Below, piece by piece: positions 6,188-63,447 of a stretch of DNA of 64,000 nucleotides. Positions within the stretch are counted from its first letter, which is position 1, and each line of letters opens with the position of its first letter. The stretch spans positions 65,149 to 129,148 of the forward strand of contig CAKSFT010000006.1 in the NCBI GenBank assembly GCA_934454145.1. Direction: 5' to 3'. Source of the DNA: an uncultured Clostridia bacterium (GTDB lineage: Bacteria > Bacillota > Clostridia > UBA1381). A program made the translations under genes and the position numbers. A model generated the notes under the pieces. That model saw only the letters and a program-made list of their open reading frames with translations. It had not been told where the DNA came from and searched no databases.

Positions 6188-6263
6188 CAAATTTCGTCAA
6201 TCCTTTTTTCAGTTATATATGAGGAGGCAAAACCCCGGAGTTTTTGCCTCCTCTGCTTCCCGG

Positions 6264-6449
6264 AGGGGATAGAAAAAAAGCTTTGGAATTAACAAACTGA
6301 ACCAAAGCTTTAGCTTTGGGTTACCCGACGGCGTACATGGGTACGCCAAGCGGTTAAGTTTGTTGATAGCAAGAAACGAAAAATCATATTCTCTATAATG
6401 TGTGCTTTACTTCTTTTCTTGCGTTCCGGAATTTTTTTACATTCCCTCC
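6264..6449 (-). ncRNA. Candidate structured RNA, repeat family 2 copy 1 (three-way junction plus intrinsic terminator)
   Basis: Nested helices:
- AACAAACT 6291-6298 / AGTTTGTT 6357-6364
- CCAAAGC 6302-6308 / GCTTTGG 6313-6319
- GGCGTAC 6330-6336 / GTACGCC 6341-6347
- GCAAGAAA 6369-6376 / TTTCTTGC 6415-6422
On the minus strand the element ends in AAAGCTTTGG...CCAAAGCTTT plus a U-run. A second copy lies at 35302-35539. Confidence 0.35.
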
Positions 6450-14613: not shown

Positions 14614-15111
14614 TTATTTTATACAACATTCACGGCTTTTTTCAAAAGCAATCCTCTCTGTGCCGTCGTCCGGCATATAAATCTTTCCGCAATACTTAAA
14701 GCCATGTTTTTTTATAAGCCTCTGCATCGGGACATTGTCAGCATGCGTATCAATCCTTATGTGCGGATACATACCAAAACAATAGTCAAGGCAAAATCCC
14801 CCTGTGCCTTTTTTTACAGAAGCAATGCGGTGCACAACTCCGTATTCACTGTGGTCCCCCCAGCCCCCTTCATAAATGTGCTTATACACACTGTCCCTGC
14901 CGACTTTAAAATAAAATACGCCGACAATCTTATCTTCATCAAGGCAAACATAGCTCGCTCCGTCTGCAATGTCGCCCAAAACCATTTCTTCCGGCGGATA
15001 TACAGTGCCCCACTGCGACGGATTCCCATGTTCTGCCATGAACCGCTGTGCCGCACGGTAAATCTCCATCACTCTCTCAAAATCTTTTTTTGCTGTTTTG
15101 CGTATTTCCAT
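14614..15111 (-). CDS. GNAT family N-acetyltransferase
   Basis: 165 aa. The size and the ...IVGVFYF...RIASVKKGTGG...N..MQRLIKKHGF pattern fit the GNAT fold. Confidence 0.75.
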   Translation of the reverse strand: MEIRKTAKKDFERVMEIYRAAQRFMAEHGNPSQWGTVYPPEEMVLGDIADGASYVCLDEDKIVGVFYFKVGRDSVYKHIYEGGWGDHSEYGVVHRIASVKKGTGGFCLDYCFGMYPHIRIDTHADNVPMQRLIKKHGFKYCGKIYMPDDGTERIAFEKSRECCIK

Positions 15112-15144
15112 CTCTCGTCCTCTCCCAAAATTTTATAACTATAT

Positions 15145-15360
15145 GGGTAATTGTAAAACTAACGTTTTTCAATTAAATTTCTTGGGTAGAAATAAAAAGT
15201 TCCATCTGATTTTAACTTTACGACAGGCCGAAACTTTTTATTTCAGCCAAAAATGACGCACATGCCGTCATTTTTGATTGCCAATCAGGGGGGTTGGCAC
15301 CCCCGATACTCCCGCAAAGATGCGGTAGGTAATTGTAAAATTTACATTTTACAATTACCT
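15145..15360. mobile_element. MITE-like non-coding element, family P copy A (216 nt)
   Basis: The two ends are inverted palindromes: GTAATTGTAAAAC... and ...AGGTAATTGTAAAAT-ttac-ATTTTACAATTACCT. At least 4 internal stem-loops. Flanked by the identical 15-mer ATTTTATAACTATAT at 15130-15144 and 15361-15375. Confidence 0.7.
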
Positions 15361-15459
15361 ATTTTATAACTATATTCTAACATATGATACCGCAAATTTC
15401 AAGATTATCTTTGCCGTGCCGAAAAAACATGGCCAAATATATTTTTTTCAAAAAAATAC

Positions 15460-15874: not shown

Positions 15875-15907
15875 AGGTAAGGTAAAACGTAAATTTTACA
15901 ACTACCT
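15875..15907. repeat. Solo, partly decayed family P palindrome in the ylxM-ffh spacer
   Basis: AGGTAAGGTAAAAC-gtaa-ATTTTACAACTACCT. Flanked by AAATATCTATAA at 15862-15873 and 15909-15920. Confidence 0.65.
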
Positions 15908-15938
15908 GAAATATCTATAAATTAAGGAGGGTGAGCAT

Positions 15939-35256: not shown

Positions 35257-35289
35257 GGGCTGTAAAAAATCAATTGATTTTTTACAGCC
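35257..35289. terminator. Bidirectional terminator hairpin GGGCTGTAAAAAAT-caattg-ATTTTTTACAGCC
   Basis: Perfect stem with an A-run before and T-rich sequence after. It follows the SCP2 gene. Confidence 0.7.
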
Positions 35290-35301
35290 TTTGATTTTCA
35301 G

Positions 35302-35539
35302 AGGAGATAGGAAAAAGCTTTGGAATTAACAAACTAAGCCAAAGCCTTTGCTTTGGTTTACCCGACGGCGTACACGGGCACGCCGAGCGGCGAGGTTTGT
35401 TGACAGCAAGAAACAAGAAATTATACGAAACCCATTTTTTGATTTTTCTGCCATAATAAAACCAAACTGTAACAATTGTATTTTCTATAGTGTGCGCTTC
35501 ACTTCTTTTCTTGCGTTCCGAAGTTTTTTACATCCCCTT
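35302..35539 (-). ncRNA. Candidate structured RNA, repeat family 2 copy 2
   Basis: Same helices as 6264-6449, with changes confined to loops or giving G-U pairs on the minus strand. About 55 extra nt are inserted in the loop of the outer GCAAGAAA/TTTCTTGC helix. Confidence 0.35.
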
Positions 35540-37525: not shown

Positions 37526-37556
37526 AGTTTTTTCTCCTTTTTTCTGATTTTTGCAT

Positions 37557-37590
37557 AGGTAATTGTAAAATGCAGATTTTGCAATTACCT
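37557..37590. repeat. Solo family P palindrome in the 5' UTR of the glycoside hydrolase gene
   Basis: AGGTAATTGTAAAAT-gcag-ATTTTGCAATTACCT. It lies 31 nt upstream of the ATG at 37525 and downstream of the promoter at 37634-37662. Confidence 0.7.
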
Positions 37591-37633
37591 GTCTGATTTT
37601 TACCGTTTTTTTTTGGAATTATTATCTTTTCAG

Positions 37634-37803: not shown

Positions 37804-37846
37804 TAAGATTGTTACATTATTAATATGTAACTGATTATAAAAACAA

Positions 37847-37979
37847 TGTTTTACAATTACAGACTAGAGCGGAAATGACACACATGCCGTCATTTTTGAT
37901 TACCAATCAGGGGGTGGCACCCCCGATACCCCGCAAAGATGCGGTGGCTAATTGTAAAATTTACATTTTACAATTACCT
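37847..37979. mobile_element. Truncated family P MITE-like copy C (right ~2/3 only)
   Basis: Matches copy A from AAATGAC.CACATGCCGTCATTTTTGATT.CCAATCAGGGG...CCGCAAAGATGCGGT through the terminal palindrome. The left part is replaced by a half palindrome TTTTACAATTAC. Confidence 0.65.
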
Positions 37980-38007
37980 AAAACAATTTAAATTTTGGGA
38001 GAATCTT

Positions 38008-46830: not shown

Positions 46831-46865
46831 TTGCTTTTGGGAAAAAGGAGAAACAGTAACATTTA

Positions 46866-46912
46866 CTTTTTTCTTCTTTTCTTGTGTTCCGGAGTGTTTT
46901 TACATCTCCCTT
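46866..46912 (-). repeat. Short family 2 module in the eno 3' UTR
   Basis: Minus strand reads AAGGGAGATGTAAAAACACTCCGGAACACAAGAAAAGAAG, starting 4 nt after the eno stop. It matches the 5' ends of the elements at 6405-6449 and 35495-35539. Confidence 0.4.
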
Positions 46913-57619: not shown

Positions 57620-58537
57620 TTATCCCAACTGATTTATATAGCGGATTGCAGAAACAGCGGCAACCGCGCCGTCTGCTGCGGCGGTCACAATCTGCCGCAG
57701 CGGTGTGTCACGCACATCTCCGGCGGCAAAAATGCCCTTTACATCGGTCTGCATTTCGCGGTCTGTCCGCACAAAGCCGTCTTGGGTGAGAAAAACATAC
57801 TTGCCGGCAAGTTCGCTTTTCGGCACTCTGCCAATTGCCACAAAAACCGCCGATGTTTCTATTGTGCTTTCTCTTTTTGTCTGCACATTCTTAATCGTCA
57901 CCGAATCAACGGCGTCCTTGCCATGGATACACTCCACCACGCTGTCGGTGACAATCTCTATCCTGCCGTTGTTCATGGCTTGTTCCACAAGCTTGCGGTC
58001 TGCACGGAATTTTTGACTTCTGTGCACAAGATACACCTTCGGCGAAAATCTTGACAAATACAGCGCATCTTCAAATGCTGTGTTTCCGCCCCCGACCACA
58101 AGCGTTGTCTGCCCCCTGAAAAAAGCGCCGTCACATGTGGCACAATATGAAACGCCCAGACCCGAAAAAGTGTCCTCGCCGGGCACGCCGAGTTTCCGCG
58201 GTTCGGCACCTGTGGCAAAAATAACCGTATTTGTGCTGTATTCGTTTCTTCTGGTTTTCACAATCTTTATTTCCTTGTCACAGCCGTCAATTTCCCTCAC
58301 CTTTTCGGTGACAATCTGTGCGCCAAGCTTTTCGGCGTGCTTTCTGAAATTGTTTGAAAGTTCTTCGCCTTTCGGATTCTCATAAAATCCCGGATAATTG
58401 TCAACATCATATGTGTAATTTATCTGACCGCCGCAGCTCAGCTCCTCCAGCACAAGGGTTTTCATTCCGCCGCGGCATGCATATATCGCGGCGGACAGCC
58501 CGGCCGCGCCGCCGCCTATGATTACTATATCGTACAT
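57620..58537 (-). CDS. trxB: Thioredoxin-disulfide reductase
   Basis: YDIVIIGGGAAG, redox-active CATCDG, GGGNTAFE. Start at MYDIVI. Confidence 0.92.
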   Translation of the reverse strand: MYDIVIIGGGAAGLSAAIYACRGGMKTLVLEELSCGGQINYTYDVDNYPGFYENPKGEELSNNFRKHAEKLGAQIVTEKVREIDGCDKEIKIVKTRRNEYSTNTVIFATGAEPRKLGVPGEDTFSGLGVSYCATCDGAFFRGQTTLVVGGGNTAFEDALYLSRFSPKVYLVHRSQKFRADRKLVEQAMNNGRIEIVTDSVVECIHGKDAVDSVTIKNVQTKRESTIETSAVFVAIGRVPKSELAGKYVFLTQDGFVRTDREMQTDVKGIFAAGDVRDTPLRQIVTAAADGAVAAVSAIRYINQLG

Positions 58538-58640
58538 ATCCAAAATACCTCTCTTTTTTTGGTTCTTTATACTATTATATACCAATGCCATACATTTAAC
58601 AAGTATTATTTCAAAATATTCTCCTCACCTTTAGCAAAAT

Positions 58641-58860
58641 AGGTAATTGTAAAATGTAAATTTTACAATTACCACCGCATCTTTGCGGGGGTATCGGGGG
58701 TGCCAACCCCTGATTGGTAATCAAAAATGACGACATGTGCGTCATTTTTGGCTGAAATAAAAAGTTTCAACCTGTCGTGAAGTTAAAACCGGATGGAACT
58801 TTTTATTTCTACCCAAGAATTTTAATTGGAAACGTTAGTTTTACAATTACTTATTTATGC
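58641..58860. mobile_element. MITE-like non-coding element, family P copy B (inverted relative to copy A)
   Basis: The reverse complement aligns end to end with 15148-15360. By manual alignment there are roughly a dozen substitutions and a few 1-2 nt indels. Confidence 0.7.
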
Positions 58861-58917
58861 AAAAATAAAGGGTCACGGCAAAATCTGCTCTGCCGCAACC
58901 CTTTTGACAAGCCGATA

Positions 58918-59763
58918 TTAAAACTCAACCTCCATACCGTCATACGACGTTATGATGCCGGATTTCTTTGCGATTTCCGAAAATTCTTCATACAACATAT
59001 CGGCACCGTTGTGTGAAAAATGGTTTGAACAAAAGATTGTATTTTCATCTGCCGCGCCTATTTCCTTCAGGCGGTTCATGACGCGTATATTGTCATTCAG
59101 ATTCATATGCCCCACATACGTCATCGCCGGGTCATTTGCCTGTGTGCAGTCAAGGGAAACAAAATTCAGCTTTATGCCGCTTTTTTCAAAAAACTCCCAC
59201 ACTTCTTCGCAAAAATAGTTTGTGTCATGTGCATAGAGCAATCGCTTTCCCTCTTTGTTTTCAATGATATACATAGTCGGATATGAAGTCACATCATGGG
59301 TTGCTCTCAGCGCCGTGACGGTGTGTTCTCCGATTTTTTCCGGTTTGTACAGTTCCATCGGCTTTGCACCCAGATACTTCTCCGCCTCAAAATTCATGCC
59401 GCTGACAATGGAATGAATTTTTATCATTGCGCCGTACATGCCATGGAATGTAAACACCGGTGTACGTTTTGGGGTTTGCGAATATCCGGGGAATATCGAG
59501 GGCAAATCACCCGAATAAAAATGGTCTGCATGCATGTGCGTTATCAGACAGTCCTCTATGTCCGCAAGATTGATGTTGTTGTTTATACAGTGCACAAAAG
59601 TATCGGCAGGAAAGTCAATCAGCAGCTTCCCGTCAATCAAAGCCTGCGTCCTTGTCCTTATATTTTTTCCGCCGCGTCTGTGTGCCTCTCTGCACTTTTC
59701 ACACATACAAAACATCGCCGGGATTGCCTCTGCCGCCGCCGTCCCCAAAAACCTTATTTTCAT
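58918..59763 (-). CDS. MBL-fold metallo-hydrolase (PhnP-like)
   Basis: 281 aa. HMHADH motif, with an N-terminal Cys-rich CMCEKC insert as in PhnP-like enzymes. Confidence 0.75.
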   Translation of the reverse strand: MKIRFLGTAAAEAIPAMFCMCEKCREAHRRGGKNIRTRTQALIDGKLLIDFPADTFVHCINNNINLADIEDCLITHMHADHFYSGDLPSIFPGYSQTPKRTPVFTFHGMYGAMIKIHSIVSGMNFEAEKYLGAKPMELYKPEKIGEHTVTALRATHDVTSYPTMYIIENKEGKRLLYAHDTNYFCEEVWEFFEKSGIKLNFVSLDCTQANDPAMTYVGHMNLNDNIRVMNRLKEIGAADENTIFCSNHFSHNGADMLYEEFSEIAKKSGIITSYDGMEVEF

Positions 59764-62854: not shown

Positions 62855-62884
62855 CACTTCTCCTTTGTATAAATTTTTATTCAA

Positions 62885-62913
62885 GTAATTGTAAAACTGA
62901 TGTTTTACAATTA
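62885..62913. repeat. Solo family P palindrome (left-end type), 30 nt upstream of the lipoprotein ATG
   Basis: GTAATTGTAAAAC-tgat-GTTTTACAATTA. Confidence 0.65.
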
Positions 62914-62925
62914 AAATGCTGAGGT

Positions 62926-62964
62926 AAAAATAAAAAGTGTGCAGACACATCAAAGCCTGCACAC
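62926..62964 (-). terminator. Intrinsic terminator with no upstream CDS (end of a leader or sRNA)
   Basis: Minus strand: GTGTGCAG-gctttgatgtgt-CTGCACAC followed by TTTTTATTTTT. Confidence 0.6.
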
Positions 62965-63237: not shown

Positions 63238-63284
63238 ATGTATGCTACAAACTTATAATCTATAATAGGATAGTTATAATCAAA

Positions 63285-63447
63285 TTTCAACAATTGGGGT
63301 ACACTCTATGTGAAGAGCGTACACTTCGATTATCATGCAACCCAAAAGTTGAAATTATGATTATAAGTGTGTAGCAACCTTTAACATCGAAGTCAATGCG
63401 TTTTTCAAGTGCGTGGCTCTGTGTAAAGGAGGCTACGCACTTTTTTT
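63285..63447 (+). ncRNA. Candidate structured leader or sRNA ending in an intrinsic terminator
   Basis: - TTTCAAC 63285-63291 pairs with GTTGAAA 63348-63354
- inner hairpin GTACACTCT/AGAGCGTAC
- competing TACACTT.ATTATCAT/ATGATTAT.AGTGTGTA pairing
- terminator AGTGCGTGGC 63408-63417 / GCTACGCACT 63432-63441 plus T7. Confidence 0.35.

Follow-up and report, generated by a model that had tools for sequence, protein, structure and literature searches.

What is the non-coding segment that separates trxB from an MBL-fold hydrolase gene, and why does a second, inverted copy of it lie on the same contig? We studied this locus in a window of 64,000 nucleotides (G000:C6:65149-129148), the whole stretch of DNA that was analysed, from the genome of an uncultured Clostridia bacterium (G000; 2.68 Mb, 16 contigs, 99.9% complete, 88% coding). 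The original prediction held that the two segments, here copy A and copy B, resemble each other from end to end. A MAFFT alignment of window:15128-15380(+) with window:58621-58880(-) bears this out over ~213 nt, with about a dozen substitutions and three small indels, much as had been counted by eye. The whole length aligns, and the similarity is thus not limited to the terminal palindromes. Both genes named as neighbours of copy B indeed lie on either side of it. A repeat search furthermore recovered an internal arm of 126 nt at 93% identity in the two copies.

A strong terminator-like hairpin (58904-58867) lies between the hydrolase gene and copy B, and a promoter-like site (58602-58574) is found between copy B and trxB, whose start is at 58537. 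The Pfam matches of the hydrolase also include Anti-Pycsar_Apyc1 (PF23023). Other assemblies either have the same 380-nt spacer at the copy B locus or break at the repeat. ARAGORN reported a 'tRNA-Stop (tta)' at 15280-15373(-); this call falls inside copy A and was dismissed as an artefact of its hairpins.

The element is a non-autonomous DNA transposon (MITE), with inverted-repeat ends, target-site duplications (TSDs), no coding capacity, many copies and empty sites, and copy B is an ordinary copy of this family. The 216 bp consensus, whose boundaries (TAGG...CCTA) were refined from 50+ family copies, contains stops in all six frames. Its 15-bp inverted tips (TAGGTAATTGTAAAA / TTTTACAATTACCTA) are conserved in 50+ copies, and each is embedded in a 32-36-bp terminal palindrome whose inner arm carries a degenerate tip. 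BLAST identified 54 full-length copies (~216 bp; matches of >=150 nt) in G000. Motif scans of the same genome returned 531 sites resembling a tip as well as 313 outer arms of palindromes, from which the number of elements is put at about 150 when solo 36-bp palindromes and derivatives some 110-330 nt long are counted in. Five family members lie within the window (Table 1). Degenerate palindromes starting ATCTATAATAGG... at window positions 15875-15908 and 63258-63293 look like decayed solo members.

TSDs of 10-15 bp were scored on 50 elements, using fixed TAGG...CCTA boundaries and taking in only elements with at most one TSD mismatch. Their A+T content is 88%, and each site has its own sequence. 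The mode is 12 bp (16 elements), and the other lengths are 10 bp (6), 11 bp (10), 13 bp (10), 14 bp (4) and 15 bp (4). Most copies have a TSD, and so do solo palindromes. Orthologous sites are filled in one species and empty in another: locus L033 of G002 is filled and the corresponding region of G000 (C1, ~93.9 kb) is uninterrupted, and locus L036 of G001 is filled and G000 is uninterrupted at C10:126789. In another relative, G011, two identical ~500-nt composites, each a MITE with a nested ~290-nt insert, occur at different sites, which indicates that the outer ends move whatever stands between them. The insert (composites at L101:1115-1625 and L102:805-1310) sits in the loop of the GGGG/CCCC hairpin, and its inverted ends (GGCATTAGAGATTCGAATCC / GTTCGAGTCCCTAATGCC) resemble tRNA T-arms.

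The similarity of the two copies had been attributed to recent transposition or to strong selection on the structure. Transposition is upheld by the inverted-repeat ends, the TSDs and the empty sites in related species, but 'recent' does not apply to this pair: copies A and B are 91-93% identical (93% by BLAST), which is ordinary in a family with a mean pairwise identity of 89%. The closest twin of copy B is instead G000:C1:40103-40316, which is identical at 212 of 214 positions and differs only at the tip. Either the copying was very recent or gene conversion has made the two alike. Copy B had also been described as lacking a clean flanking duplication. In fact it has a degraded 11-bp TSD with one 1-nt indel, which reads TTTTGCTAAA and TTTTGCATAAA on the element strand (aligned as TTTTGCATAAA and TTTTGC-TAAA).

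Table 1. Coordinates of the element copies, their parts and neighbouring features. Positions are those of the window unless a genome or locus is given; a dot marks features without an assigned strand.
Feature	Position	Strand	Details
MITE copy B, 214 bp	58640..58853	-	alignment with copy A and family consensus boundaries
Copy B tips	58640-58643; 58850-58853		TAGG; CTTA, mutated from CCTA
Terminal palindrome, consensus right end	58640..58673	.	GGTAATTGTAAAA-loop-TTTTACAATTACC; 14-pair stem
Two short GC-rich hairpins	58675..58709	.	CCGCA...TGCGG and GGGGG...CCCC, read from sequence
Twin hairpin stem B	58723..58749	.	AAAAATGACG-loop-CGTCATTTTT; RNAalifold, covaries across genera
Twin hairpin stem A	58753..58809	.	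GAAATAAAAAGTT...AACTTTTTATTTC; RNAalifold helix, covaries across genera
Terminal palindrome, consensus left end	58823..58853	.	RNAalifold helix 1
Copy B TSD, GGAG side	58630..58639	.	TTTAGCAAAA on the + strand
Copy B TSD, distal	58854..58864	.	TTTATGCAAAA on the + strand; matches 58630-58639 except for a 1-nt indel
GGAG, pseudo-SD beside copy B	58621..58624	-	exactly 5 nt (GGTGA) past the TSD
trxB (Pyr_redox_2 family)	57620-58537	-	
MBL-fold hydrolase (Lactamase_B_2)	58918-59763	-	
MITE copy A, 218 bp	15144..15361	+	G000 C6:80292-80509
Copy A TSD, perfect 13 bp	15131..15143 and 15362-15374		TTTTATAACTATA
GGAG of the SD site of gene 14614-15111(-)	15122..15125	-	5 nt past the copy A TSD
Solo 36-bp palindrome	37556..37591	.	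about 6 nt from a minus-strand GGAG
Shorter derivative without stem A	37819..37982	+	flank: 12-nt TSD-sized stretch, TTTTG, GGAG, ATG
Left-end fragment, subfamily copy	62880..62940	+	minus-strand GGAG 18 nt past the tip
Other-architecture loci	L139, L141, L146, L147, L149		G171, G175, G022, G065, G087
Other-architecture loci	L148, L150, L152, L156, L159		G082, G052, G067, G006, G066
Surface-protein segment loci	G000:C2:126832-130735 (L091); L035 (G016); G002:C19:22455-25349; G137:C372		

The duplications reveal where the element lands. GGAG, the core of the Shine-Dalgarno (SD) box, starts exactly 5 nt past the end of the TSD in 32 of the 50 elements of G000 and 4-6 nt past it in 37/50, and each of these GGAG motifs is followed 6-10 nt on by ATG, GTG or TTG. 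Six of the remaining 13 elements have GGAT, GGAC, GGGA or GAAG at +5, and seven of the 50 are without an adjoining SD-like motif. Among AT-rich intergenic 12-mers of G000 the +5 configuration occurs at a rate of 0.74%, giving a P of about 9e-56. The position matrix consists of the AT-rich TSD followed by N N N A [not T] G G A G. The gene is faced by the right end in 16 cases and by the left end in 21. In a second species, G002, 14 of 21 elements obey the rule, which is also visible in copies from G001, G008, G013 and G111; in one relative, G010, the motif lies inside the TSD. A start codon is located 28-39 nt from one end in 35/54 full copies, in either orientation, where gene starts were taken from crude in-house ORF calls; the GGAG test is independent of these calls.

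We conclude that integration is positioned by the SD motif: one edge of the TSD lies exactly 5 bp upstream of GGAG/GGA, the other floats 10-15 bp further upstream, and either end of the element can face the gene. The gap to GGAG is constant while TSD length varies, so one cut is fixed and the other floats. The GGAG beside copy B is followed only by TTG AAA TAA and no gene; anchoring to a GGAG that is not part of a working ribosome-binding site suggests that the DNA motif itself is read. Roughly one in two anchored copies occupies the entire gap to the stop codon of an upstream gene on the same strand, which implies that the element is transcribed through without serious polarity. The target genes include one for a class I aminoacyl-tRNA synthetase, whose upstream gap is filled by a copy. 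Taken as a whole, the explanation of copy B as an insertion of a ~216-bp MITE whose integration is positioned by the SD motif is very probably correct. The variable stagger of 10-15 bp counts against it, as this would be unusual for a rigid transposase complex.

This targeting rule is apparently undescribed. We found no published description of SD-anchored insertion, and the section on insertion preference in a 2024 MITE review is silent about it. Intergenic mobile elements are generally depleted upstream of genes (PMC2942039), and the MITE family runs against this pattern.

The search for the mobilising enzyme covered the genomes as well as sequence collections. In G000, no two family tips within 6 kb of each other enclose a gene, and matches to PF01609, PF00665, PF01610, PF13610 and PF05598 in five MITE-bearing genomes are without family tips. 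A cognate autonomous insertion sequence with the same ends, a defining feature of MITEs, was thus not found in the genomes searched, which are MAGs and as such often lose insertion sequences, limiting how this absence is to be read. Metagenome collections yielded 11 matches, all of them MITE copies or fragments, and plasmid, phage and viral collections yielded none.

Several genes were considered as partners and rejected. An IS1182/IS5-like gene in G011 (DUF772 and DDE_Tnp_1) has unrelated ends. An IS3-like gene (G000:C2:230-1546; HTH_Tnp_1, HTH_21, rve) was set aside on family grounds, as IS3-family enzymes make 3-5-bp duplications; the family tip is absent from the flanks examined, which may not reach the ends of the insertion sequence. 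A truncated ISL3 gene and IS200 copies were likewise rejected, and the 1.5-kb repeats of G000 are paralogous transporter and phage-like genes rather than insertion sequences. P0001 (L003:601-1305(-) = G000:C1:39207-39911) is a single-copy gene for a RAYT-like protein of 234 aa with weak Y1_Tnp and REP_Tyr_transpos matches. It lies 196 nt from the twin of copy B (C1:40107), is not flanked by palindromes in G002, and carries RVH where, presumably, the HxH of the HUH motif is expected, so that it looks degenerate. P0001 was rejected as a partner since its homologues occur in 140 of 164 genomes irrespective of the MITE, which occurs in 7/164. From the staggered TSDs alone, we infer a mobilising enzyme of the DDE type.

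The element is rich in predicted structure. The family consensus folds at -71 and -81 kcal/mol for the two strands, and relatives carry hairpins equivalent to the two short GC-rich ones, with other sequences. Among the near-identical family members the pairing of the hairpins is 98% complete but there is little variation, with a covariation term of -0.09 kcal/mol and 4 of 53 pairs compensatory, and private mutations are only mildly depleted in stems (0.57 vs 0.80 per column). Strong selection on the structure, as originally proposed, cannot be read from the A/B pair or from this family, but it does hold for the twin hairpin across genera. With a covariance model the twin hairpin was located in 31 of 151 genomes, which represent 12 of 25 genera; copy numbers of 10-25 are frequent. 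Its stem A has the form ...AAAAGTTCC-loop-GAAACTTTT... and its stem B the form ...TGACG-CACATG-yCGTCA..., with no variation in their inner 6 bp (stem A) and 4 bp (stem B). In an alignment of 33 representatives that was fitted to the model and favours pairing, 15 of 23 pairs are compensatory, both-side changes occur in 158 cells, a number that none of 500 shuffles attains (55.6 +/- 5.6), and pairing holds in 98% of cells but falls to 36-64% once partners are displaced by 1-3 columns. Of 759 cells, only 4 are G-T pairs; their near-absence fits a constraint on both strands, that is, folding at the DNA level or an RNA read either way.

An Rfam search with the element gave nothing at gathering score and chance-level matches only at E up to 1. 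We conclude that the covarying twin hairpin is a conserved structure that is so far undescribed. At least three architectures, which differ in their termini, contain this core (Table 1). The second has CTGTCGACAAAA.../...TTTTGTCTGCAG hairpins and the third a GC-rich GGCGTGCGCGTCCGCACGCC hairpin. Several of these other-architecture copies are again located just upstream of ribosome-binding sites.

Could the positions of the copies be explained without a targeting enzyme? Random insertion in AT-rich intergenic DNA, followed by purifying selection that leaves harmless copies near ribosome-binding sites, has some support, as selection shapes intergenic insertion sequences (PMC2942039) and an 88%-coding genome offers limited tolerated space. 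We nevertheless consider it unlikely. The precision is that of a single nucleotide, although sites 1-10 nt further upstream would be equally harmless, and the same offset is seen in wide divergent intergenic regions with 300-400 nt free. The distance from tip to GGAG varies with the TSD and the GGAG gap does not, the opposite of what selection on spacing would produce; a fixed-plus-floating cut pattern is hard to obtain through selection after random insertion. The non-functional GGAG of copy B also counts against it. The 13-6-13 palindromes could alternatively be operator sites of a global transcription factor, since they are perfect and stand at a fixed distance from many gene starts. Each palindrome is, however, bracketed by its own duplicated target, orthologous promoters of sister species are without it, and the patchy distribution of the palindrome family (seven of 164 genomes) argues in the same direction, making this reading extremely improbable.

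Two further alternatives build on the hairpins. Were the element a strand-specific structured RNA (a leader, small RNA or riboregulator) that spread because it regulates the downstream gene, its place in 5' leaders, 17-20 nt from SD sites, its strong folding and the covariation of its core would be expected. Yet its orientation to the gene is random (16:21), it has no Rfam match even at a permissive threshold, the depletion of private mutations in stems is only mild, and its arrival by insertion is evident from TSDs and empty sites; we therefore judge this role very unlikely, while a secondary effect of the MITE on mRNA is conceivable. Equally improbable is a REP/REPIN-like or IS200/IS605-derived element whose single-stranded hairpins are moved by a Y1 (HUH) transposase such as P0001. 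The palindromic termini and the covarying core with almost no G-T pairs fit such a model, as does the position of the degenerate P0001 gene near the twin of copy B. Y1 elements, however, make no TSD, whereas 10-15 bp is the rule here; P0001 is far more widespread than the MITE and has RVH instead of HxH; and the hairpins of a true IS200 copy in G000 are unrelated to those of the MITE.

Two other functions were discarded. The only candidates for outward promoters are hybrids of TTTACA (-35) with a -10 in the flank, whose transcripts would start at or after the SD site. The terminal palindrome also obtains a terminator-like score, but its GC content is low, and copies inside operons must let transcription pass.

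The MITE family shares traits with known systems. Classical MITEs (Correia/NEMIS, ERIC, RUP, MITEAba12, and MIC231 with IS231; PMC10969869, PMC3184786) are likewise short, non-coding and multi-copy, with terminal inverted repeats, TSDs, intergenic location and folding into long hairpins. Unlike them, the present element has long, variable TSDs and ends that are each palindromic, is anchored 5 bp from the SD GGAG, contains a covarying twin-hairpin core that recurs with other termini, and has no partner insertion sequence that we could find. REP/BIME/REPIN sequences with RAYT are also dispersed extragenic palindromes with modular hairpins and solo and doublet forms. REPs leave no TSD and flank their RAYT gene, whereas TSDs are the rule here and the RAYT-like gene is near-universal in the bacterial family irrespective of the element.

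Palindrome-associated elements derived from IS200/IS605 likewise have end hairpins and in part conserve structure over sequence. Their insertion takes place 3' of a tetra- or pentanucleotide and creates no duplication; the TSDs of the present element set it apart from this mode of insertion. Long duplications are known from the IS4 group (IS4, IS231), which makes duplications of 10-13 bp, and from the IS30-family IS1630, whose duplications are long, variable and located at terminator hairpins. Both resemble the present element in TSDs of at least 10 bp, variable length and structured or motif-defined targets. Its tips do not resemble typical IS4-family ends, and in the MITE-bearing genomes examined neither a PF01609 nor an IS30-like transposase has ends that match.

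The full element occurs in seven of the 164 genomes of the bacterial family and is abundant in G000, G002 and G011. G002 belongs to the same genus as G000; housekeeping genes of the two share 70-73% DNA identity and their MITEs 87-92%. A tree of copies shows clustering by genome with few exceptions, and amplification took place separately in at least three species. MITE identity above host-gene identity, together with the clustering by genome, points to horizontal arrival followed by separate bursts.

A ~3-kb segment that encodes GDSL-lipase, beta-helix and SLH surface proteins carries the MITE at the same site across species. Copies of the segment in G002, G016 and G137 share 96-98% identity, and G000 has it too; the species belong to two genera (Table 1). 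There is no transposase within the segment. The identity indicates recent horizontal transfer of the segment, a possible route by which the MITE spreads.

How might such an element move? A transposase supplied in trans, most likely of the DDE type with a staggered cut, may bind the tips and read the purine-rich SD box in DNA. Reading the SD box would offer thousands of harmless sites between promoter and ribosome-binding site or between the genes of an operon, and the element would have to be transcribed through. The twin hairpin may be the cis-acting part needed for mobilisation or for harmlessness. We tentatively put forward a joint reading, which is possible but on balance doubtful, in which the SD box would act as a landing beacon, with one strand-transfer position set rigidly at 5 bp from GGA(G) and a second, looser one 10-15 bp away. 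Integration would depend on a twin-hairpin cis element common to at least three architectures and 12 genera, and the enzyme would stand outside the insertion-sequence families checked; it could be structure-recognising or guide-using rather than a classical DDE transposase.

Should the SD box serve as an integration cue, it would surpass in abundance every other 'safe harbour' known to be targeted by a bacterial transposon. The tolerance of a 2.7-Mb genome that is 88% coding for ~150 insertions, at sites that include the gap upstream of the aminoacyl-tRNA synthetase gene and the interiors of operons, would thereby be explained. A strongly folding hairpin of ~216 nt, located 15-20 nt from many ribosome-binding sites, could modulate mRNA stability or translation genome-wide. 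Furthermore, an enzyme with an SD target rule could serve for the precise placement of cargo upstream of genes.

The window contains another repeated non-coding sequence. Three intergenic stretches (6230-6437, 35267-35529 and 46842-46900) have in common a CT-rich block, ACTTCTTTTCTTGCGTTCCGGA, downstream of a TATAAT-like box. A further ~110 nt upstream is common to the first two (87% identity). None of the three has an Rfam match, and they may represent a leader or small RNA that is repeated.
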